Notes under the pieces: generated by a model
The model's input: the letters and a program-made list of their open reading frames with translations, nothing else
Databases searched by the model: none
Told to the model about the DNA's origin: nothing
Made by a program: the position numbers and the translations under genes
Shown here: positions 8,915 to 59,712 of the stretch, piece by piece
Layout: each line of letters opens with the position of its first letter
Numbering within the stretch: the stretch's first letter is position 1
From: Acidimicrobiales bacterium
GTDB taxonomy: Bacteria > Actinomycetota > Acidimicrobiia > Acidimicrobiales > JAKAVM01
NCBI GenBank assembly: GCA_027452005.1
Contig: DAIDHF010000012.1
Span: 735 to 64,734, forward strand
Direction: 5' to 3'
Length of the DNA stretch: 64,000 nucleotides

Positions 8915-10708
8915 ATGAGTACTGCATACTCCCCGCCCGTGAATGCAAGCCAGCCGAGACTGCTGATAAAACTTTGCATGGCTAGTACGCTTTTGCTGGT
9001 TGTGGGTTTCCTCGTAATGAACGTCAAGGCAAGTTCTCGTGTTGGGGCCACGACTGGATCTCAGGGTACGGGTTACTGGATGTTGGATTCCTCTGGAACG
9101 GTGTACTCCTTAGGAGATGCAACCTCGATGTGCCCGGGATCAACCACGTGCCCGGTGTCGGGGATAACTTCGGCGGTTGCAATGGCCCCGACACCTGATG
9201 GTGGAGGCTACTGGGTGGTGTCTCCCCAGGGAGTTGTCGTGGGTTCAGGAGACGCGAAAGCGTTCTCCCTATCCACCCCTACCTCGGCCCCGGTTGTCGC
9301 AATTGCGTCCACCTCTGATGGGCAAGGATACTGGCTGACTACAAACCTAGGGCAGATTATCACGGCCGGAGACGCGGTTAGCTTTGGAGAGGACCCGGCT
9401 AATTTAGCGTCTCCAATTGTTGACATGGTTGCCACCCCAGATGCAAAGGGTTACTGGATGCTCGGTGGCGACGGTGGGGTTTTTGCATTTGGTGATGCCG
9501 GGTTTTTTGGATCGACAGGGGCAATTCATCTCAATAGACCAGCAGTTGCAATGGCGTCTAGCCCTGACGGTCGCGGTTACTGGTTCGTGGCATCCGACGG
9601 TGGGGTCTTTGCATTTGGTGATGCCGGGTTTTTTGGTTCTATGGCTAGCACTAGCTTGGCAAGACCAGTTTTAGGGATCGTCTCTACAATCAATGGCGAT
9701 GGTTACTGGATGGTGGCCTCTGACGGAGGAGTGTTTGCCTTTGGCGACGCGGGGTTTGTGGGCTCACTAGGGGGCCAAGCGATTGCGTACCCGATTGTCG
9801 CCTTCGCCCCATATGAAGGGGCTCCCTCAAATGTTCCGTCGACCTTGCCCTCTGGGGGAACGACTACTAGTTCTTTGGGTCCGCCAACCTCTATAGTTGT
9901 ATCTGACGGAACCGGGTGGTCGTCAACGGGTTTGGACGGTCCACAACCATCTCCCGGATCATGTCACTACGGGCTAGCATCAGATGGATACGATCTTCCT
10001 GATCTTTCTTGTACGCCGGGGGGCATCAACTCTAACGTTACCCAGTCAAACATTGGCTCTACAATTTGTTCCTCTGGCTACACCACCTCAGTGCGGCCTC
10101 CTGAGTCGATGACCGAGCCAGTCAAGTTTATCTTAATGGACGCTTACAACGATCCCAACTCTGCTAGCACAACTGAGTTGGATCACCTGGTCCCCTTAGA
10201 GTTGGGTGGATCGTCAGCTACACAAAATCTATGGGCTCAACCAGACCAAGGACAGCCTTCCGAGTTCGACCCCGGTGATCCCTATGGGATCAATGCAAAA
10301 GACGGAGTAGAAGACGCGTTGCATGACGCTGTATGCGCAGGAAAGGTGACATTAGCCTCGGCTCAACAGGCCATAGTGGCCAACTGGACCACCGCTCTTG
10401 ACGTACTCGGGTTAAGTTCGCCAACTTCTACCGCGACTAGCTCCCCCGTATCGACGACTACCCAGGCAAGTGTAGCTCCATGGTGTCAAGCGTCAGCCGC
10501 ACCGGCCAACGACGGCTATAGCGGAGACTTTAACGTTACTGTAACATCGAACCAGCCCTACCAAAATGCCACGGCTTCTGACACAGGGGACTCTTGGAGC
10601 CAAGAGACTAATGGTTCAGGTAGTGTGGTAATTCTTCTTTACAACTCTTCGCCTGGAGAACTGATCAACGTGACCGTAGGATCAGCTTCGTGTTCAGCAA
10701 CCGCTTAG
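8915..10708 (+). CDS. Secreted or membrane-anchored protein: six 'GYW..DGGvFaFGDA' repeats, an HNH (beta-beta-alpha-Me) nuclease-like domain, then a Cys-bounded C-terminal domain
   Basis: N-terminal hydrophobic anchor LCMASTLLLVVGFLVMNV. Six repeats, e.g. DAKGYWMLGGDGGVFAFGDAGFFGS, DGRGYWFVASDGGVFAFGDAGFFGS, NGDGYWMVASDGGVFAFGDAGFVGS. From about 10010 the sequence reads CTPGGINSNVTQSNIGSTICSSGYTTSVRPP...ELDHLVPLELGG..NLWAQP...INAKDGVEDALHDAVCAGKVTLASAQQAI. Confidence 0.85.
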   Translation: MSTAYSPPVNASQPRLLIKLCMASTLLLVVGFLVMNVKASSRVGATTGSQGTGYWMLDSSGTVYSLGDATSMCPGSTTCPVSGITSAVAMAPTPDGGGYWVVSPQGVVVGSGDAKAFSLSTPTSAPVVAIASTSDGQGYWLTTNLGQIITAGDAVSFGEDPANLASPIVDMVATPDAKGYWMLGGDGGVFAFGDAGFFGSTGAIHLNRPAVAMASSPDGRGYWFVASDGGVFAFGDAGFFGSMASTSLARPVLGIVSTINGDGYWMVASDGGVFAFGDAGFVGSLGGQAIAYPIVAFAPYEGAPSNVPSTLPSGGTTTSSLGPPTSIVVSDGTGWSSTGLDGPQPSPGSCHYGLASDGYDLPDLSCTPGGINSNVTQSNIGSTICSSGYTTSVRPPESMTEPVKFILMDAYNDPNSASTTELDHLVPLELGGSSATQNLWAQPDQGQPSEFDPGDPYGINAKDGVEDALHDAVCAGKVTLASAQQAIVANWTTALDVLGLSSPTSTATSSPVSTTTQASVAPWCQASAAPANDGYSGDFNVTVTSNQPYQNATASDTGDSWSQETNGSGSVVILLYNSSPGELINVTVGSASCSATA

Positions 10709-13652: not shown

Positions 13653-14046
13653 GGCGAAGATACTATTTGTGTGTGTTCACAATGCCGGACGAAGCCAGAT
13701 GGCGGCTGGATTTGCTAGAGAACTCGGTGACGATCGGGTTGAGATTCTGTCCGCTGGCACTCAACCGGCAGATGAGATAAATCCTGCTGTTATCCAGGCA
13801 ATGGCCGAGGTAGGGATTGACCTGGGTCAGGTCATTCCAAGAAAACTAACCCCTCATGATGCTGAGAGTTCCGACTATGTTGTAACCATGGGATGCGGGG
13901 ATAGTTGCCCATTCTTTCCCGGGAAGACCTATCTCGACTGGAAGCTGGACGACCCGGCCGGGAAATCCCTAAATGAGGTCAGGGTGATCCGAGACCAGAT
14001 CAAGGACTTAGTTTCCAAACTTATCTTTGAGATTTCATCCCACTAG
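13642..14046 (+). CDS. arsC: Arsenate reductase, low-molecular-weight phosphatase type
   Basis: The CX5R(S) P-loop CVHNAGRS is preceded by KILFV, which lies upstream of the ORF-track GTG (13669). There is an in-frame TAG at 13639-13641. CTG at 13642 sits 7 nt after GGAG (13631-13634). The exact start is uncertain. Confidence 0.8.
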   Translation: MSNKAKILFVCVHNAGRSQMAAGFARELGDDRVEILSAGTQPADEINPAVIQAMAEVGIDLGQVIPRKLTPHDAESSDYVVTMGCGDSCPFFPGKTYLDWKLDDPAGKSLNEVRVIRDQIKDLVSKLIFEISSH

Positions 14047-14381
14047 ATCTTTTCGTGGAGAGACTCAACGAGTTGTCTGAGGTGTTCAATCTCTTTCTTG
14101 TGTTGCTTGTTATGCTTGATGATATGAATAGTACCTCCGGCTGCGATACATGCCCCTAGGTCACTTGTCACGTTAGTATAATTACCCCCAATCAGCTCCG
14201 AGGACGAGGATACGTGAACGCTGAACAGTGGCAGGATAACGAGATATACTCCCAACAAGGTTAGGAATATTATGTGTGGCTTGGATGCAAGGGCACGTGG
14301 GACAAAACCCAGTATCTTTGCCATTTTGGACTGGGGCTCGTCTGGGGACCCAGAGTTGGTCATGTCATCAATTGTAGGCAT
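14043..14381 (-). CDS. Hypothetical membrane protein
   Basis: 112-aa ORF with one clear TM helix (IIFLTLLGVYLVILPLF) and a K/H/E-rich C-terminal helix. No family recognised. Confidence 0.45.
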   Translation of the reverse strand: MPTIDDMTNSGSPDEPQSKMAKILGFVPRALASKPHIIFLTLLGVYLVILPLFSVHVSSSSELIGGNYTNVTSDLGACIAAGGTIHIIKHNKQHKKEIEHLRQLVESLHEKI

Positions 14382-14435
14382 TTCGCTCCTTTTAGTTGGC
14401 TTTTTCGATTACCTAATCTGGCTAGCGAATTTTAG

Positions 14436-14517
14436 TGGGCCGGGGAGGATTCGAACCTCCGTAGGCGAAGCCGGCAGATTTACAGTCTGCTCCCTTTGGC
14501 CGCTCGGGCACCGACCC
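14436..14517 (-). tRNA. tRNA-Tyr (anticodon GTA), class II with a long variable arm, CCA not encoded
   Basis: The reverse complement reads GGGTCGGTGCCCGAGCGGCCAAAGGGAGCAGACTGTAAATCTGCCGGCTTCGCCTACGGAGGTTCGAATCCTCCCCGGCCCA. It has a 7-bp acceptor stem, an anticodon loop CTGTAAA, a GGTTCGAATCC T-arm, and close resemblance to E. coli tRNA-Tyr. Confidence 0.93.
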
Positions 14518-14629
14518 AGGGATACAAATCTAGTCTTATATCTCGGGCAATATCTAATTGAACGCCCCTTTTGGCCGACCTGACTCAACTTGCTTTCTGA
14601 CTCACCTAAGACAGAAGTTCGGGCAAACC

Positions 14630-15574
14630 CTACTGGTCGTCTCGGCGTCGAACGACCTTTTTTTTGATAGCCCCTTCGGGCCACTGGTAGGTCCTATCGG
14701 GCTTTATCGTCTCGTCAGTGTAGTAGGTCTCTCGGAACGCACAGTCCTCTAGGACCGCCTCAAACATGTTAGCCCCACCCAGATTTGCAGAGTGCAAGTT
14801 CACGTTTCTCAGGTGGGCCTTCCTGAACTGGGCCATTGGAAAGTCGGCCTCTGCAAGAATTGCATCTGTAAGATCGGCCCCTTCAAACCGGGTCATCCTG
14901 CAGTTGGCCCCTGAAAGGTCGGCTCCTCTCAAGATCGCCTTGGACAAGTCGGCCCGCGATAGATCTGCCCCGGTTAGATTGGCATAACTTAGGTCGGCCT
15001 CCTTCAGATTGCATCGCGACAAATCGGCCCCGAATAGGTCGGCTTGGCGAAACACGGCCCTGGAAAGGTTCGCCTTGGAGATCCGAATCTTTCGCATGTT
15101 GGCCCCGGTGAACTCCACCTGAGGCCAGTTGGCGTTGTTCACCGTGACCCAGGCCATGTTGCACTCCCTCAGATCTGTCCCGGGAGTAATCTTTCCAGGA
15201 ACAATCGGGGTTCCTACCTTGTCTACCCCGTAGGGAGAGTCGGGGCTTTGATGTCTAACCTCCCCGCCCTTTGACCCGTGACCTGCTGTGACCTGGTGGT
15301 GGACATGTTGGGCGTGCTTGGCCCGGGCCATCTTCCTCTTCTTCTTTGGGACGAGAGGCTTGTCGGTTACTTTTTTGGGGTCACCCAAGTAGATAACCTC
15401 TGGCTCTGGGACCTTGGCAGAGTCACCGGGTTTTGCAGAGTCACCCGGTTTGCCTGAACTTCCTAGGGGTCTCGGCTGGGCTGCCCGGGCACGCCCCTGG
15501 GCACTTGGTACGCGCCTAGCCCCGGTTGTCGCCGTGCCCCTCTTTGGTGCTGATCGCTTCCCAAAAAGTCTCAT
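14630..15574 (-). CDS. Pentapeptide-repeat protein with a basic, low-complexity N-terminal region
   Basis: The C-terminal half carries A(D/N)LxX repeats (ADLSRCNLKEADLSYANLTGADLSRADLSKAILRGADLSGANC). The N-terminus is K/R/P-rich with tandem KPGDSAKPGDSA. Confidence 0.85.
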   Translation of the reverse strand: MRLFGKRSAPKRGTATTGARRVPSAQGRARAAQPRPLGSSGKPGDSAKPGDSAKVPEPEVIYLGDPKKVTDKPLVPKKKRKMARAKHAQHVHHQVTAGHGSKGGEVRHQSPDSPYGVDKVGTPIVPGKITPGTDLRECNMAWVTVNNANWPQVEFTGANMRKIRISKANLSRAVFRQADLFGADLSRCNLKEADLSYANLTGADLSRADLSKAILRGADLSGANCRMTRFEGADLTDAILAEADFPMAQFRKAHLRNVNLHSANLGGANMFEAVLEDCAFRETYYTDETIKPDRTYQWPEGAIKKKVVRRRDDQ

Positions 15575-49896: not shown

Positions 49897-50430
49897 TTAT
49901 ACGTGGTGTAACAGATGAGCTGATAACTCACTCTTGATATCTACGACATTTGCGTGGATAACGTCCAATCTAGCTTCTATCGTGTCTATCCGGCCACCCA
50001 GACTATCGATTCGCCGATTGAGCCGATCGCCTTGTTCATCTATGCGCTGGTCGAGTCGAGCACCTTGTTCATCGATACGCACAGCAAGAATGTCGATTCT
50101 GGCCCCAAGAGAATCAAATCGCTGGTCGAGTCGGGCACTTTGCTCGTCGATTCTGGCACTTTGCTCGTCGATTCTGGCACTTTGCTCGTCGATTCTGGCA
50201 CCAAGAGAATCAAATCGCTGGTCGAGTCGGCCTGAAATCTCATCTGCCCGACGGCCAAGTTCAACGCGTACACTTTCAATCTTTTGTTCAAGTGAGTCCC
50301 GAAATTTATTGAACTTAGCATCTATTACATCACCTAGAGCGTCGATTCGATTGTTCAGAGTGATGGCATATAAGACCATGATTGGTAATATGGCGACCAC
50401 GACTGTGAGGGTTGCAACTTGCACTATCAT
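49897..50430 (-). CDS. N-terminally membrane-anchored coiled-coil repeat protein
   Basis: TM helix IVQVATLTVVVAILPIMVLYAITL, followed by a repetitive RID/RLD array (RFDSLGARIDEQSARIDEQSARIDEQSARLDQRFDSLGARID...). Confidence 0.6.
   Translation of the reverse strand: MIVQVATLTVVVAILPIMVLYAITLNNRIDALGDVIDAKFNKFRDSLEQKIESVRVELGRRADEISGRLDQRFDSLGARIDEQSARIDEQSARIDEQSARLDQRFDSLGARIDILAVRIDEQGARLDQRIDEQGDRLNRRIDSLGGRIDTIEARLDVIHANVVDIKSELSAHLLHHV
50135..50197. repeat. Perfect 3 x 21-bp tandem repeat inside the coiled-coil gene, flanked by a 34-bp direct repeat
   Basis: GCACTTTGCTCGTCGATTCTG occurs three times. The flanking GGC(C/A)CCAAGAGAATCAAATCGCTGGTCGAGTCGG lies at 50101-50134 and 50198-50231. 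Confidence 0.9.
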
Positions 50431-53312: not shown

Positions 53313-53352
53313 AAACAAAAGAGCCGCAACCTCGAAAGGCTGCGGCTCTTTT
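53313..53352 (-). terminator. Rho-independent terminator downstream of the 1,964-aa gene
   Basis: A perfect 8-bp stem, GAGCCGCA (53321-53328) with TGCGGCTC (53341-53348), and a 12-nt loop. On the minus strand it is followed by TTTTGTTTT. There is also a T-run on the plus strand, so it may act in both directions. Confidence 0.7.
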
Positions 53353-53366
53353 GCTGTACTTCGTTG

Positions 53367-56300
53367 TTATGAAGCTGCTATTGCTTCAATAGCACTTGAC
53401 GATGTCGGTCCAGGCGTAGTCTCAAGCGCCGGAGTCGGACTTCCATCACCGAATGAGTAGATGGATCCGTCCAGACCGGCAACCCAGTAACCCTTACCAT
53501 CCGGGGTCAAAGCAATTCCGGTGACAGAGTTGGAACTAGATAGACTTCCAGCTGGCGAACCGAAGAACGGAGCATCTCCAAAGGAGTACACACCACCATC
53601 GGAACCAACCATTAGATAACCCTTGTCATCAATGCTCGGAATCATTCCTACAATCGGAGCTGCTGGGGTGAAGGAGTTGGCTCCACCTGCAGGCATTCCT
53701 GGGTTGATCTGGCCTGAGGAACCATAAAACCCTGCATCACCGAAGGCAAAGATTCCACCGTCTGAAGCAACCATCCAGTAGCCCTTACCGTCGGCCGTAG
53801 GAACTATCCCAACTATCGGCCTATTAGGCGTAAAAGCGTTCGAACCACCAGCAGGAAGATTCGGGTTGATCTGGCCTGAGGAACCAACAAAGGTAGCATC
53901 ACCGAAGGCAAACACTCCACCGTCTTGTCCAACCATCCAGTAGCCCTTACCGTCGGCGGTGCTAACTATTCCAACAATCTCCTTTACAGGGGTAAATGAA
54001 TTGGAACCACCAGCAGGCCTTGATGGGTTGATCTGACCAGCTGAACCCTCAAAGGAGGCATCTCCGTAGGAGAAGATTCCACCATCGGCGCCTAGCAACC
54101 AGTATCCTTTACCATCTGGGGTAACAGCCATTGCAATAGTAGGTGCATTCAGATTCAGATTTGAAGCATCGCCAAGGCCGGTCATTGCTGAACCATAGGC
54201 ATATACCTTTCCGTATGCACTGAGGGTAAAGAATCCACCAGCCGCTGCAGGTGCTGCATAGGTAAACATGTCGGAGCTAGATGTTGCCGAAGTTCCAGCA
54301 GCATTCATCACAGTTACATTTACGGAACCAGTGCCCGCCGGTGAAGTAACTGTAATTGACGTAGCCGACGATACCGTCATGCTAGTACCAGCAGTCGAAC
54401 CGAAGTCAACGCCAGTCGCAACACATGTAGCGGGGCTACCAGCAACTTCAAATCCGGTACCAGTTACCGTTACTACCGTACCACCGGCTCCAGGGCCGCT
54501 AGTTGGGCTAATACCCGTAACCGTCGGAATTGCACAGCTTGAGTAGGTGAAGGTATCAGCTGAAGACTTCGCAGAGGTTCCACCAGGGGTAACAACCGTT
54601 ACATCAACCGCACCAGCAGTCCCCTTGGGGTCGACAACTGTCAATGATGTCCCGGCGGAGTTCACTGTGACACTAGTTCCAGCAGTCGCACCAAAGTCCA
54701 CAGCAGTGGCCCCAGTTAGATTCGTACCAGTAACCGTAACTGTCTGTCCACCAGCAGTCGTACCCGAATTAGGGGAAACTGCGGTAACGGTGGGTGCAGG
54801 AATTACAGCGTAGGTGAACTGATCAGCAGAACTCTTCGCAGAGGTACCTCCGGCTGTAGTGACTGTCACATCTACCGCACCAGCAGATCCAGCAGGTGAC
54901 GTGGCGACAATTGAAGTGTCACTCTTTACGGTCACACCAGTTGCAGCAACCGTACCAAAATCTACTGCTGTAGCGGCTGTAAGTCCGGTACCTGTAATCG
55001 TTACTGCAGTGCCACCATTTGTTGAACCGGTATTTGGCGAAATAGCAGTTACAGTCGGAACTGGTGCCGTGTAGGTGAACTGGTCAGCGCTAACAGCTGG
55101 TGAAGTTCCACCAATGGTAGAAACCTCAACGTTCACCACGCCAGCAGCTTGAGCTGGTGAAGGAACTGTTATCTGAGTTGACGACACAACAACCACCGAG
55201 CTAGCCGAGATAGCACCAAAGCTAACAGTTGCTGAATTCGTAAAGCCAGTACCTGTTACGGTAACGGACGTTCCTCCAGCAGTGAGACCTGTATTGGGCG
55301 AGATACTCGTAACACTAGGTGCAGGCGGTGCAACGATAGAGAAACCAGCACTTGTAGTCGGAGTCGTATCGGCCGAAGTATTTTCAACCAACGTATATGA
55401 CCCCGTTATTGTATTGGTAACACCGTTGATGGCGAGCGAAACAGATCCGCTTGCTGGTACGGCAACTGCCGTAGTTATCGTTGCCGTAGTCGAGGCTACG
55501 GTAACACTACTAGCACTAACCCCATTGACCACGTAGTTTGCAGCCGAAGTCGGCAACACGGTCGAACTTGGGAACGCCACCGATATCGTCCCTGTATTAG
55601 CAGCCAAAGCTCCCGTAGAGGAAACACTAAAGGTGGTCGTATAGTTCGCAGTTGACTGAGCCACGTTCGTACTTAGCGCGACCGTCGGCGTGGTAATGCC
55701 CGACGAAATCGTATAGCTAGAACTGGTCACCGCGGCACCATCAGCTGAAGTAGCAACTGTAAAGGTGTCAGAAGTACTTGCAGTCGAGGGGTTAGTAACA
55801 CCAGGAAGAGTAACAAGAACCGCTTGGCCAGCTTGTACTGCAGCTGCAGCACTAGTGTTCAACGTAACGGTGACAGTTGCAGTACCCGAACCAGACAGTC
55901 CTGAGGCTGCAAAACCATCTACTGTATAGTCAGTTGCTGTAGCGTCCGCAAAATTGGTACCCGTAGCGGCTGCAATTGTAATGGTTCCGGTTGTATTAGG
56001 AATGGCAGTCGTGGCCGTAAAGCCCACTGTATAGGTCTCGCCAGTCCCAGAGGTAGTTGGAACGTCTGGATATGGTCCAGAGATCTTAGTTACACCTGTA
56101 GCAATTGTATAAGTTCCAGTAGCCACAGGAATTGGATCTGTAGAGGTATAGAGCGCCAACGCATCTGCTGTGCTAGCAGTAGTTGGATTTGTCACCCCAG
56201 CAATACCTACAGTCACTACCGACGAAGCAGCCACCAAGGCGGCAGAGACCGTCCCGGGCACCAAGATAACGACTGTAGATCCAGAGTTCACAACCGTTGG

Positions 56301-59261
56301 AGTGGTTGACTCTGTCGCGCCAGCAATCGTGTAGTCCGAGGCCGTTCCAGGAAATACCGTTCCAGAAGGTGCCGACACCGTAATCGTGCTGGTACCAGGA
56401 GTCATCGAGGTTGTAACGGTGAAGTGGAACGTATAGACCGATGTTGAGCCAGCCGTACCAGGTGCAGCCGCACTTGGAGCAGTAATAGCCTGTGATGCAA
56501 CTGCGCTATTGCCAAGGCTTGTATAGCTACTATAAGCCTGAGAGGTAATAGCTCCACCAGCACCACCACTGTCAGCAAGGGTTGTCAACCCTACATAGTA
56601 GGTCCCTGCTGCAAGTGTGCTAAAGCCTGCCACTCCAATTGTCAGCGGGGTACTGGCTCCAACTGCGACTGGTGAGTCAATGGTAATTGTATATGGAGCC
56701 GCAGAAGTACCTGAGCCACTGCAAGAACCCGCAACGGTCGTTGGAACGATTCCATTGACAACGTAATCAGTTGCCGTTGTCGGGAACGGACAACTTGAAG
56801 CTGTTGTGCTTAGCGTTATGTTTGCAGATGTTGAAACGGCCAAAGCACCGGAACCCGATGTTTGCGACGCTACTGTAAGATCAGAAACAGAGGTCGTAAC
56901 CGGGGTAACTGTTAGTACCGGTTGGTTCGGGGTGCTTGTAGTTGTGCCAATTGTAAATGGTGCAGAGGTCACCGAAGTCGTATCCGCAGACGTTGACACC
57001 GTAGCGGTGAATGTACCTGCTGACGGATTCAAGAAGGCATTAGCTCCAGTCAAAGTTGTCGTGCACGATGTGCCGGAAGCAACACCAATTGCTATTGATA
57101 GCGACCCAGCGGCCGACCCAGCGGCATCAGCGACTACAACCGAGGTGCCCGTAACTGTAATGTTCTCCGGTGTTACTCCGATGCAAGCGTCTGCTGCTCC
57201 GGAGTCAGCTGAAGGTACCGTTACTGTCGAGGGCAGATTTACGGTTATAGATCCTGCTGCGGCAATAGCCAGATTTGTGTTGAAGGCAACGGTGTAATAA
57301 GTAGCACCGCCAGCGGTAGTTGAATTTGGCGTTACCGTAGGACTTTGTACTCCAACAGTTGGCTGAGCAACAAAGTTAAGGGGTGTTGCAGTTGTTGCGG
57401 TTCCCGTATCGGCTGAGGTATTGACTTCAACCGGATAGTTGCCAGTAGTTGTTGGGTTTGTTTGAGCTGCTACCACGATGGTAACTGTCTGTCCTGCTGA
57501 AACCCCTAGACCACCATTCAAAGCTGCTGGAACTGTGATCTTGATTCCTGCGAATCCGGTCGCACAAGTCGAAGCTGACGCTGGAGTTCCGGCATCAATG
57601 GCCGCTCCGCCTGTCCCTGAGGCAATTGAAACGGAATTGGCGGCTCCGGTGTGGATTGGTCCTGACGGGAATGCAGTACTTGAGACACAGATTGATATGG
57701 TCCCTGCCCCGGCAGCTAGTCCCGTCGTGGCGGTGAACTGAATGGTGTAGTTAGCAGTTTCTGTGTAGCTCGGTGCGCTTCCAGAAATGTAGTTATTGGA
57801 CACGGTGGCCGTCAGGTTTGACACGGCAGTAGTTACTGAAACCGTTGCCGGCTGAGGTGCTGTATCTGAAGAGGTAGATACGTATCCAATTGCAGTACCT
57901 AGAGTTGTTGGATCAGTTATTCCGCTGATCGACAGTGTAACTGACGTACTTACAGCTACCGCCACAGGGGCAGTGATCGTTGCGGTGGTTCCAGAGACGT
58001 TCACCGTACTTGCCGCAACGCTCTGCATTACATAGGAGGAAGCAGTGGTAGGTAGAGTTGTCCCGGTGGGTGCAGTGAATGTAACTGTACTTGTTCCACT
58101 GGTAAGTGCCCCGGTAGCACTGGTTGTAAAGGCAACATTCCATTGCTGACCCGAAAGTCCTGCTCCAACTGGAGTAGACCCTCCGTTAATTGACACCGAG
58201 CTAACAATGGTTCCTATAGAAAAGGTTGGCGAAGTTGCCGGAGCTGCATCCGATGAGGTCTGAACCGTGAGCGTGTAGTTGCCCGCTGTGTTTGTGTTGG
58301 TTACATCGTCTATGAGAACTGTTACCGAGCTACTTGCCTTAATGGAGGCAATAGTTGGAACAGTTATCTTTGCGACTTCACCTGAAACCGATACTGATTT
58401 GGCGGAGATGCCATTTACAAAGTATGAGCCGGCGGTTCCCGCTCCAGCGGTTGGAAGCACGAATTGACTTCCACCACCAGTGATCGTTGGGAGCGTTACG
58501 GTTATGGTTCCACTACCACCAACAAGGGATCCGGATGCTGAGGTCGTAAAGGAGAGCGACAGATTCGAAGCTTGGCTTGCACCTGCGTTAGTTAAGGTTG
58601 GTGCTGCTAAACCTGAAATGCTAGATCCTATCGAGAATGACGAGCTGGTCACTGACGACGCATCTGCTGAGGTCGATATGCCAAAGGTGTAGCTACCACT
58701 CGCCGGGTTGGTAACTCCGTTGATTACAACTGCAGCGTTAGTTGAGTTACCAATAGTCGAGGGTGTCGTGATAGTGGCCGTCGTACCGTTATTTGATGTC
58801 GATACGCTGGTTGCCGCTACCGCTCCGGCACCGCCAGATACCGTGCACCCTGTGAAGGTGGCGCCAACGTTGACTGTGTAGTCGGACGCCAGGGTTGGCA
58901 GGGATGTTCCCGTCGGTAACGAGATCGTGATTGTACCTGTTCCCGCCGTCAAGGCACCCGTTGATGAGGTTGTAAATCCTACGGTGTATATAACTCCGGT
59001 TCCTCCTGACGCCGACGAACTGGCGCAGGGACCGACTAGGCCCGTCACACTGGTAGCGGCGCTTGCTGCGCTCACTCCTAATAGGGGCAATAAGCCCGTC
59101 ACGGTCAGGGCCGCTGTGAAAGCCGCCGCGATCGCCCTTCTTAAAGTCAGCCACCTATAAGTGGTCTTGGCTTCCTGGGTGGTCACATTCACTACTGGAT
59201 CTCCTTTGTATTCGGTTATGGCCCGTATAGAGCCTGGCTCCGGAACCTTGTATTTCAACAC
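53367..59261 (-). CDS. 1,964-aa cell-surface protein: signal/anchor, about nine 125-150-aa T/S/A-rich modules, four IPT/TIG domains, and a six-repeat GYW..DGG.F.FGDA module
   Basis: Hydrophobic segment AAAFTAALTVTGLLPLLGVSAASAA. Modules share YT..FT...G.GTITI..P.GT..P....DYTV...ATIT.P....S..V...I.GVTNP...G.Y....TSAD...VTS..F.I. IPT/TIG units look like VTSISPNTGLTAGGTSVTVTGTGFT...FTY (four copies). C-terminal repeats look like DGKGYWMVASDGGIFAFGDAGFYGS. The true start codon is uncertain. Confidence 0.85.
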   Translation of the reverse strand: MLKYKVPEPGSIRAITEYKGDPVVNVTTQEAKTTYRWLTLRRAIAAAFTAALTVTGLLPLLGVSAASAATSVTGLVGPCASSSASGGTGVIYTVGFTTSSTGALTAGTGTITISLPTGTSLPTLASDYTVNVGATFTGCTVSGGAGAVAATSVSTSNNGTTATITTPSTIGNSTNAAVVINGVTNPASGSYTFGISTSADASSVTSSSFSIGSSISGLAAPTLTNAGASQASNLSLSFTTSASGSLVGGSGTITVTLPTITGGGSQFVLPTAGAGTAGSYFVNGISAKSVSVSGEVAKITVPTIASIKASSSVTVLIDDVTNTNTAGNYTLTVQTSSDAAPATSPTFSIGTIVSSVSINGGSTPVGAGLSGQQWNVAFTTSATGALTSGTSTVTFTAPTGTTLPTTASSYVMQSVAASTVNVSGTTATITAPVAVAVSTSVTLSISGITDPTTLGTAIGYVSTSSDTAPQPATVSVTTAVSNLTATVSNNYISGSAPSYTETANYTIQFTATTGLAAGAGTISICVSSTAFPSGPIHTGAANSVSIASGTGGAAIDAGTPASASTCATGFAGIKITVPAALNGGLGVSAGQTVTIVVAAQTNPTTTGNYPVEVNTSADTGTATTATPLNFVAQPTVGVQSPTVTPNSTTAGGATYYTVAFNTNLAIAAAGSITVNLPSTVTVPSADSGAADACIGVTPENITVTGTSVVVADAAGSAAGSLSIAIGVASGTSCTTTLTGANAFLNPSAGTFTATVSTSADTTSVTSAPFTIGTTTSTPNQPVLTVTPVTTSVSDLTVASQTSGSGALAVSTSANITLSTTASSCPFPTTATDYVVNGIVPTTVAGSCSGSGTSAAPYTITIDSPVAVGASTPLTIGVAGFSTLAAGTYYVGLTTLADSGGAGGAITSQAYSSYTSLGNSAVASQAITAPSAAAPGTAGSTSVYTFHFTVTTSMTPGTSTITVSAPSGTVFPGTASDYTIAGATESTTPTVVNSGSTVVILVPGTVSAALVAASSVVTVGIAGVTNPTTASTADALALYTSTDPIPVATGTYTIATGVTKISGPYPDVPTTSGTGETYTVGFTATTAIPNTTGTITIAAATGTNFADATATDYTVDGFAASGLSGSGTATVTVTLNTSAAAAVQAGQAVLVTLPGVTNPSTASTSDTFTVATSADGAAVTSSSYTISSGITTPTVALSTNVAQSTANYTTTFSVSSTGALAANTGTISVAFPSSTVLPTSAANYVVNGVSASSVTVASTTATITTAVAVPASGSVSLAINGVTNTITGSYTLVENTSADTTPTTSAGFSIVAPPAPSVTSISPNTGLTAGGTSVTVTGTGFTNSATVSFGAISASSVVVVSSTQITVPSPAQAAGVVNVEVSTIGGTSPAVSADQFTYTAPVPTVTAISPNTGSTNGGTAVTITGTGLTAATAVDFGTVAATGVTVKSDTSIVATSPAGSAGAVDVTVTTAGGTSAKSSADQFTYAVIPAPTVTAVSPNSGTTAGGQTVTVTGTNLTGATAVDFGATAGTSVTVNSAGTSLTVVDPKGTAGAVDVTVVTPGGTSAKSSADTFTYSSCAIPTVTGISPTSGPGAGGTVVTVTGTGFEVAGSPATCVATGVDFGSTAGTSMTVSSATSITVTSPAGTGSVNVTVMNAAGTSATSSSDMFTYAAPAAAGGFFTLSAYGKVYAYGSAMTGLGDASNLNLNAPTIAMAVTPDGKGYWLLGADGGIFSYGDASFEGSAGQINPSRPAGGSNSFTPVKEIVGIVSTADGKGYWMVGQDGGVFAFGDATFVGSSGQINPNLPAGGSNAFTPNRPIVGIVPTADGKGYWMVASDGGIFAFGDAGFYGSSGQINPGMPAGGANSFTPAAPIVGMIPSIDDKGYLMVGSDGGVYSFGDAPFFGSPAGSLSSSNSVTGIALTPDGKGYWVAGLDGSIYSFGDGSPTPALETTPGPTSSSAIEAIAAS

Positions 59262-59508
59262 GCGCGCGTGACGCGAGTCCCGTCTAAACTACGTGTTTGT
59301 AAGTCTTGTGTCAAACATCCTCCCTGGATTTTTGGATTTACTGCCTGACCAGGGTTTTTCTACTGGCAAAGTCTGTAAATATCCTGGCAGGGTCGTTGTA
59401 ACTTGTTTGTCATGTCTCTAATTTTGTCCAGGATATTTGTATTTGGAACCCGGCTATTTCCTAGTAACCTTATAGTAGAGGCTCAAATACGTAGAGAGGT
59501 AGTTTGTA

Positions 59509-59712
59509 ATGATTGGTGCTCTAGAAGGTACGGACCTGTGGATCGTACTCGGAATTGTGTTGCTCTTGTTCGGGGGAACCCAGCTTCCTAAGCTGGCCAG
59601 GTCCATTGGATCTGCCTCCTCTGAGTTCAAGAAGGGAATCGAGGAAGGTTCAAAAGGGGGAGTCGATTCAGAAACATCGTCCGACGATACTACAGGCACT
59701 ACCAAGACTTAA
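59509..59712 (+). CDS. tatA: Twin-arginine translocase subunit TatA/E
   Basis: WIVLGIVLLLFGGTQLPKLARSIGSASSEFKKG is the canonical TatA TM plus amphipathic helix. An AGAGG Shine-Dalgarno lies upstream. Confidence 0.9.
   Translation: MIGALEGTDLWIVLGIVLLLFGGTQLPKLARSIGSASSEFKKGIEEGSKGGVDSETSSDDTTGTTKT

Follow-up and report, generated by a model that had tools for sequence, protein, structure and literature searches.

A giant predicted surface protein of an Acidimicrobiales bacterium with nine tandem modules of the BslA/DUF2808 type

The giant gene and its nine modules

The window analysed here, a stretch of 64,000 nucleotides from an Acidimicrobiales bacterium (contig DAIDHF010000012.1), carries on its reverse strand a single uninterrupted frame of 1,964 codons (mechanical open reading frame, ORF, 53367..59261). 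In order from the N-terminus, this giant gene encodes a predicted signal peptide, nine tandem copies of a T/S/A-rich module, four IPT/TIG domains and a six-bladed beta-propeller (Table 1). What is new here is the use of a variant of the BslA/DUF2808 beta-sandwich as a surface module in tandem; this is a genuine module, widely distributed and in effect without annotation, but its fold is not new. Residue numbers follow the mechanical ORF throughout, even though the start codon called below is a different one.

The initial annotation, made from the sequence alone, had placed about nine copies of an unrecognised module at 55330-59060. Delimited by hand with motif anchors and MAFFT, the modules occupy residues 71-1313 (55323..59051), are 126-158 aa long and share 31-47% identity with module 9. 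The motifs that had been read as their conserved skeleton are present in the MAFFT consensus, which includes YTVxFT, GTGTIT...P, DYxV, GVTNP and TSAD. A hidden Markov model (HMM) based on 116 modules taken from other proteins, the window's own copies being excluded, detects exactly nine domains in the protein, with scores of 17-108 bits, and none of 200 residue-shuffled stalks scores with this model at E<=10. "About nine" can thus be replaced by nine.

The tandem repeats are not detectable in the DNA of the stalk region, and the modules are therefore old paralogues rather than the product of a recent expansion. A syntenic orthologue (P0156) is collinear with the giant protein, 76% identical overall and without frameshifts. 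Identity to the respective counterpart there is 63-81% for the single modules, 79-94% for the TIG domains and 84% for the propeller; given these module-by-module counterparts, each of the nine positions is conserved in its own right, and homogenisation is not taking place. The adjacent housekeeping genes are 66-93% identical between the two loci.

The stalk (1,243 residues) consists to 71% of T, S, A, G and V and contains no Arg, 5 Lys, 7 Glu and 27 Asp, together with 51 Leu (4%) and one Trp. Its cysteines are paired, each pair within one module. Composition and intramodule pairs would fit a protein exposed outside the cell in acid. Isopeptide and ester cross-links were considered as well but given up, since the modules have next to no Lys or Gln (sequence reading and residue counts).

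Fold and family of the module

The AlphaFold model of module 9, computed from a 125-sequence alignment, is of high confidence (pLDDT 98, pTM 0.90) and has about ten strands. In a Foldseek comparison its top PDB matches are BslA of Bacillus subtilis (4bhu; E 3.3e-5, TM 0.64-0.67, nearly full length) and the BslA paralogue YweA (5mkd), which together account for seven of the eight matches with E<=0.001 (E 3.3e-5 to 5e-4, TM 0.61-0.67). A CBM2 cellulose-binding domain (6qfs; E 5e-4, TM 0.61/0.72) stands at rank 6, and generic Ig-like adhesin domains are also listed. As modelled, the module thus has a BslA-type Ig-like beta-sandwich fold. Compared with 177,635 PDB sequences, the profile of the module family finds BslA at E 0.0024 and YweA at E 0.032, and hhalign aligns the module with the 4bhu chain sequence over 70 columns (probability 71%, E 3.7e-5), pairing FPSSTVLP with TLPSGFTA and GSYTLVEN with AGTYTFRAE. 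In the same alignment, which is a placement by sequence and not by coordinates, the BslA cap strand LALDLL is set opposite TAVAVP in module 9 and P..I.a in the family consensus; read in this way, small residues have replaced the leucine cap in the module. Matches in the PDB to the gpV spike of phage P2 (E 1e-4) were rejected, as they cover ~65 residues of beta-helix, reflect a likeness in strand pattern or composition and have no Foldseek support. A viral fold library gave nothing specific for the module.

In the Pfam scans, DUF2808 (PF10989) exceeds its cutoff on the entire protein (37.9 bits against 25.3, E 2.3e-9, summed over two stretches). Scanned singly, however, all modules lie under that cutoff: six of the nine are unmatched, and the matches of modules 1, 4 and 2 (22.8, 18.8 and 15.7 bits) span just profile positions ~66-130 of 146. 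Among 125 family modules, 16 match DUF2808 singly at E<=0.01 (best E 4e-7) and 109 do not. The BslA model, PF17735, (cutoff 38.7 bits) is matched by three of these 125 (best E 1e-5) and gives no match on the whole protein or on its modules. No Pfam match to CARDB, DUF11, Fn3 or Big was found on the window's modules, with stray Big_8 matches on two of the 125 family modules, and NCBIfam has no model for either module or propeller.

These results uphold the earlier description of a beta-sandwich that is neither IPT/TIG, Fn3 nor Big. "Unrecognised" survives for single modules, which remain below cutoff, but not for the whole protein, where DUF2808 passes, nor for the fold, which is that of BslA and YweA. 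The annotation was to be refuted by a match of high confidence to some known Pfam domain, and this was found only by half: the match is weak, and as DUF2808 has no assigned function it adds none to the module. We read the module as a divergent, cap-less branch of a single BslA/DUF2808 superfamily, on the basis of convergent weak sequence signals and a clear fold match rather than of any single strong score.

How widespread is the module? An exhaustive search of 1.84 billion cluster representatives (clustered at 50% identity) yielded 1,528 clusters at E<=0.001, of which 310 lie below 1e-30. A word-indexed search with a profile of the nine modules, in turn, returned four small proteins only, performing poorly because the sequence is low in complexity. 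A scan of loci starting from the single protein met the module in one of 38 loci (L013), these having been found almost solely through the propeller motif. In 202 family members the copy number ranges from 2 to 25 (median 7); in 189 of them the array begins no more than 120 residues from the N-terminus, and it takes up ~75% of the protein. The homologues carry source labels such as "IPT/TIG domain-containing" or "beta strand repeat-containing", and precomputed Pfam matches list DUF2808 for most of them, the orthologue included.

Acidimicrobiales, Mycobacteriales and Actinoplanes cyaneus are among the organisms named for the homologues. Their partner domains vary, comprising T9SS sorting (in one case, P0019, from candidate division KSB1), SLH, TIG and a copper-amine-oxidase-type "stalk" (Candidatus Cryosericum), which indicates one module in combination with several kinds of anchoring system. 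Judged by partner domains and by the names given in the sources, the family would span several phyla. Three members (P0005, P0010 and P0015) share one contig of 185,816 bp and two others (P0007 and P0163) one of 80,270 bp; two or three giant paralogues per contig suggest local families of such surface-protein genes. In its variable copy number, N-terminal arrays and changing partners, the family appears to behave much as stalk domains do.

The literature that we searched treats BslA as a single-domain "bacterial hydrophobin" specific to Bacillus, with "BslA-like" applied solely to Bacillus proteins and engineered variants, and mentions DUF2808 in passing only, as a domain of unknown function. 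All7597 of Anabaena, a DUF2808 protein, has been detected in an exoproteome study (PMC10957091), and the main text of a survey of fibrillar adhesins names neither DUF2808 nor BslA (PMC8286594). The giant protein shows that this fold recurs commonly as the repeat of very large surface proteins, in Acidimicrobiia and, judging by the names and partner domains of the homologues, in other phyla. A dedicated module profile would annotate more than 1,000 protein clusters and add a stalk domain to searches for fibrillar adhesins.

Table 1. Coordinates of the giant gene, its domains and its transcription signals in the window. Residues are numbered by the mechanical ORF; HMM scores are those of the model built from modules of other proteins.
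Feature	Coordinates	Strand	Residues	Description
Whole gene	53367..59192	-		GTG 59192 to stop 53367-53369; 1,941 aa; mechanical ORF runs to GTG 59261
Signal peptide (predicted)	59058..59192	-		MNVTTQEAKTTYRWLTLRR, 21-residue hydrophobic stretch, ASA/A; read from the sequence by eye
Module 1	58623..59051	-	71-213	BslA/DUF2808-like beta-sandwich; Cys79-Cys139 pair; DUF2808 22.8 bits; HMM 108 bits
Module 2	58209..58622	-	214-351	DUF2808 15.7 bits; HMM 89 bits
Module 3	57828..58208	-	352-478	HMM 84 bits
Module 4	57354..57827	-	479-636	Insertions; Cys525-Cys566 pair; DUF2808 18.8 bits; HMM 42 bits
Module 5	56943..57353	-	637-773	Cys693-Cys733 pair; HMM 50 bits
Module 6	56484..56942	-	774-926	Most divergent copy; Cys824-Cys847 pair; HMM 17 bits, i-E 3e-7
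Module 7	56088..56483	-	927-1058	HMM 80 bits
Module 8	55701..56087	-	1059-1187	HMM 77 bits
Module 9	55323..55700	-	1188-1313	AlphaFold-modelled copy, pLDDT 98, all-beta, closest to BslA (4bhu); HMM 102 bits
Four IPT/TIG domains	54258..55322	-	1314-1668	PF01833, 131.3 bits, E 1.3e-38, four stretches, above Pfam cutoff
Six-bladed beta-propeller	53370..54257	-	1669-1964	Six GKGYWxxxxDGGxFxFGDAxFxGS repeats; AlphaFold pLDDT 90
Promoter-like element (putative)	59286..59314	-		-35 TTGACA, 17-nt spacer, -10 TAGTTT; kept in orthologue
Intrinsic terminator	53313..53352	-		Long G+C-rich stem, 4-5-nt loop, U tract; -35.3 kcal/mol, z -6.9

Propeller, gene start and genomic setting

The four IPT/TIG domains and the six-repeat module that had been described behind the array are both present. 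In the AlphaFold model the six repeats form a propeller whose last strand, judged from strand order and not from coordinates, seems to rejoin the first blade. The model matches only generic WD40 and RCC1 propellers (TM 0.5-0.58), and no Pfam or NCBIfam model covers the domain. Its middle repeats are 78% alike in DNA, with a period of 162 bp. The domain is abundant, with at least 7,919 relatives below 1e-10 (7,919 of 8,000 scored candidates). By a hand count, at least 45 of the best 120 relatives bear peptidoglycan-acting domains: CHAP in 23, YkuD L,D-transpeptidase in five, peptidase M23 in five, amidase_2 or amidase_3 in four, a PgdA-type deacetylase in two, a transglycosylase-like domain in two, and NlpC/P60, GH25, SpoIID and 3D in one each. 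Since the domain is common to wall-acting proteins, we infer that it targets the wall, where it would serve as a non-covalent anchor, and it is a candidate for a cell-wall-targeting domain in general use among Acidimicrobiia. Modules and propeller occur together in eight family members, and in each of these the modules lie N-terminal to the propeller. Inspection of the giant protein's sequence revealed neither an LPXTG motif nor a C-terminal transmembrane segment. A second protein of the window (8915-10708, forward strand, 597 aa) also carries the propeller, at ~residues 49-309, its remainder being unannotated.

At the other end of the gene, the frame of 1,964 codons stands as first described, free of interruption, but its product is shorter. 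GTG 59192, not GTG 59261, is almost certainly the true start, giving 1,941 aa, because an AAAGGAG ribosome-binding site lies upstream of it, the orthologue is called from the equivalent codon (protein start VNVTTQEAK...) and an in-frame TAG occurs in the orthologue within the stretch matching codons 1-23 of the mechanical ORF. The predicted signal peptide shows RWLTLRR, a hydrophobic stretch of 21 residues and ASA followed by A at the cleavage point, which is predicted to lie after residue 68. The N-terminal 47 residues are 96% identical between orthologue and window and form the best-conserved part of the protein. The RR pair of the signal peptide (TLRRAIA) fits the Tat motif only loosely. 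A tatA-type gene (59509-59712, forward strand, 67 aa, MIGALEGTDLWIVLGIVLLLFGG...) is divergent from the giant gene, an arrangement repeated at the orthologous locus (L039).

The intergenic region up to tatA (59193..59508, 316 bp) has 44% G+C against 54% in the window, in agreement with the AT-rich upstream region noted at the outset, and the strong terminator noted with it was likewise recovered (Table 1). The putative promoter-like element is followed by a leader of about 87 nt (59193..59279), conserved in the orthologue and holding a G+C-rich hairpin; both are more conserved than the remaining intergenic region. A strict sigma-70 scan did not call the TTGACA-17-TAGTTT element, and no Rfam match was found in the leader.

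Downstream of the giant gene lie pntA and pntB and, further on, RsiG and a GT4 glycosyltransferase; upstream, beyond tatA, are the cytochrome oxidase genes ctaC and ctaD and a subunit IV gene. The order tatA, giant gene, pntA is kept at the orthologous locus. The gene is thus a lasting part of the chromosome and does not belong to an island. The best loci in GTDB genomes are those of Acidimicrobiales metagenome-assembled genomes, among them a C-terminal fragment with 85% identity in "Actinomycetes bacterium YP3.bin99", and the window sequence occurs in mine-drainage metagenomes, which bears out the early attribution to an uncultured-type actinobacterium. At L039 an extra gene of 254 aa with no Pfam match (14041-14805) lies between the giant gene and pntA; the equivalent in the window is ~67 bases only, containing the terminator. 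Downstream of pntB, an ORF of 177 aa (49897-50430, reverse strand) gives coiled-coil-type Pfam matches that are weak and without exception under cutoff (Apolipoprotein, DUF16 and others), and a 168-aa gene without Pfam match occupies its position at the orthologous locus.

Proposed anchoring, possible roles and comparison with known systems

What would such a protein do at the cell surface? Probably, in our view, it is a fibrillar surface protein anchored to the wall of an Acidimicrobiales bacterium whose habitat is acid mine drainage. After cleavage of the signal peptide, the C-terminal propeller would hold the protein non-covalently to the cell wall; the four IPT/TIG domains would form the wall-proximal portion of a rod, and the nine BslA/DUF2808-fold modules its exposed distal two thirds. 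If ~4 nm is assumed for each Ig-like domain, a rod of 13 beta-sandwich domains would extend ~50 nm outwards from the wall. The nine modules may act as an acid-stable spacer together with a contact surface (between cells, with minerals or with the matrix), or as a protective brush. The word "stalk" in the initial annotation is accordingly plausible, but the modules are N-terminal and would be distal to the wall if the protein is anchored by its C-terminus, with no separate head beyond them.

Several observations weigh against this reading. Pfam and NCBIfam scans reveal no distinct adhesive head domain, the mature N-terminus leading straight into module 1, and for lack of such a head the label "adhesin" is not justified. 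Roughly half of the propeller's relatives carry it elsewhere than at the C-terminus, and what speaks for its binding to the wall is association, that is, the company it keeps. The signal peptide has a long and unusually conserved hydrophobic part, which makes an uncleaved N-terminal membrane anchor conceivable. Finally, the metatranscriptome runs searched yielded no more than one short contig for the gene, 175 nt at its 5' end, from a related strain at ~95% identity.

It is possible, though rather unlikely, that the protein instead belongs to an S-layer or sheath, with the propeller as anchor and the BslA-fold modules packed laterally into a two-dimensional coat. BslA itself self-assembles into a lattice by lateral contacts (PMC7615278). 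A stand-alone gene with a consensus -35 box, conserved leader and very strong terminator, a low-charge, T/S/A-rich composition typical for S-layer proteins and the strict retention of module number and order in the orthologue would all suit such a coat. However, the family's copy number of 2-25 and the several paralogues on one contig (P0005, P0010, P0015) are better accounted for by fibres than by the unit of a lattice, the protein has no SLH or CWB2 domains, and ~190 kDa with 13 beads in line would be large for an S-layer monomer. A membrane-tethered protein is more doubtful still. In that case the uncleaved signal would be the anchor and the propeller a distal, ligand-binding head, as the 21 hydrophobic residues and the near-identity of the N-terminus with that of the orthologue might suggest; yet a canonical A-S-A/A cleavage site follows the hydrophobic stretch, part of the N-terminal conservation is at the nucleotide level and extends into the untranslated leader, and the partnership of the propeller with wall-acting enzymes suggests that its ligand would be the wall of the cell itself. 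Among S-layer, sheath and adhesin, sequence tools do not separate.

The fold itself raises two further alternatives, both of which we regard as highly improbable. An array of BslA-type hydrophobins would expose hydrophobic caps and build a water-repellent interfacial film, and BslA and YweA are indeed the closest folds, with weak but genuine profile matches to BslA. The cap strand, however, faces TAVAVP in module 9 and P..I.a in the family, leucine is scarce in a stalk dominated by T, S, A and G, and the modules form a tethered tandem array without a C-terminal CxC rather than a free single domain. With the leucine cap missing, the modules are unlikely to act as hydrophobins. The rank of CBM2 among the Foldseek matches could likewise be taken to mean an array of carbohydrate-binding modules for extracellular polysaccharide. 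CBM2 domains bind through a row of exposed aromatic residues, and with a single Trp in the whole stalk such a role is unlikely for lack of aromatic residues; moreover, no CBM family appeared in Pfam scans of the window's modules, and one of the 125 family modules gave a stray CBM_25.

A wall-anchored fibre remains our preferred reading of the giant protein. More tentatively, at somewhat less than even chances, a joint view may be put forward, in which the protein unites two envelope building blocks that have so far gone undescribed: a cap-less branch of the BslA fold (at least 1,500 clusters, several phyla, up to 25 copies) would serve as a tandem stalk or coat module and the propeller as the general non-covalent wall-targeting domain of Acidimicrobiia, present in thousands of proteins, many of them peptidoglycan hydrolases. 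If true, the propeller would be the counterpart of LysM, SH3b, SLH or sortase anchoring elsewhere; its association with peptidoglycan enzymes offers a testable handle on wall attachment in a poorly studied class. Current ideas are not overturned, since giant surface proteins with Ig-like repeats are common and this one would be a fairly ordinary giant surface fibre.

Of the systems already known, BslA (YuaB) and YweA of Bacillus subtilis (4bhu, 5mkd; PF17735) resemble the module in their Ig-type beta-sandwich and in size, and they are secreted, as the giant protein is predicted to be; BslA and the module also share a sequence pattern, ...TLPSGF... in BslA corresponding to FPSGT.LP in the module and ...AAGTYTFRAE... 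to GSYTLVEN. BslA, however, is a free single domain of ~180 aa; it carries a cap rich in leucine as well as a C-terminal CxC and forms a hydrophobic film, whereas the giant protein has nine tethered tandem copies and no cap. PF10989 (DUF2808) is described as covering small proteins of cyanobacteria whose function is not known. Among Pfam models it alone scores on the modules, with an aligned region of ~43-134 of its 146 positions, and differs in that DUF2808 proteins are single-domain and the giant protein is a tandem array.

SbsB of Geobacillus is an S-layer protein built from a wall-binding module and a string of Ig-like domains. The giant protein is similar to this type in having a wall-binding module, putative in its case, joined to a chain of beta-sandwiches, in its low charge and T/S/A-rich composition and in its stand-alone gene with a strong terminator. 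Proteins of this type differ in using SLH or CWB2 anchors where the giant protein has a C-terminal propeller, and in that the latter consists of 13 near-uniform beads. Unlike the fibrillar adhesins and similar long repeat proteins of Gram-positive bacteria (PMC8286594), it lacks a recognisable adhesive head and an LPXTG sortase signal, but it shares with them a predicted signal peptide, a long stalk of Ig-like repeats and a copy number that varies within the family, and would resemble them in a putative C-terminal anchor and a distal N-terminus; like them, it is by its sequence a long, secreted protein with repeated stalk domains, here nine modules and four TIG domains.

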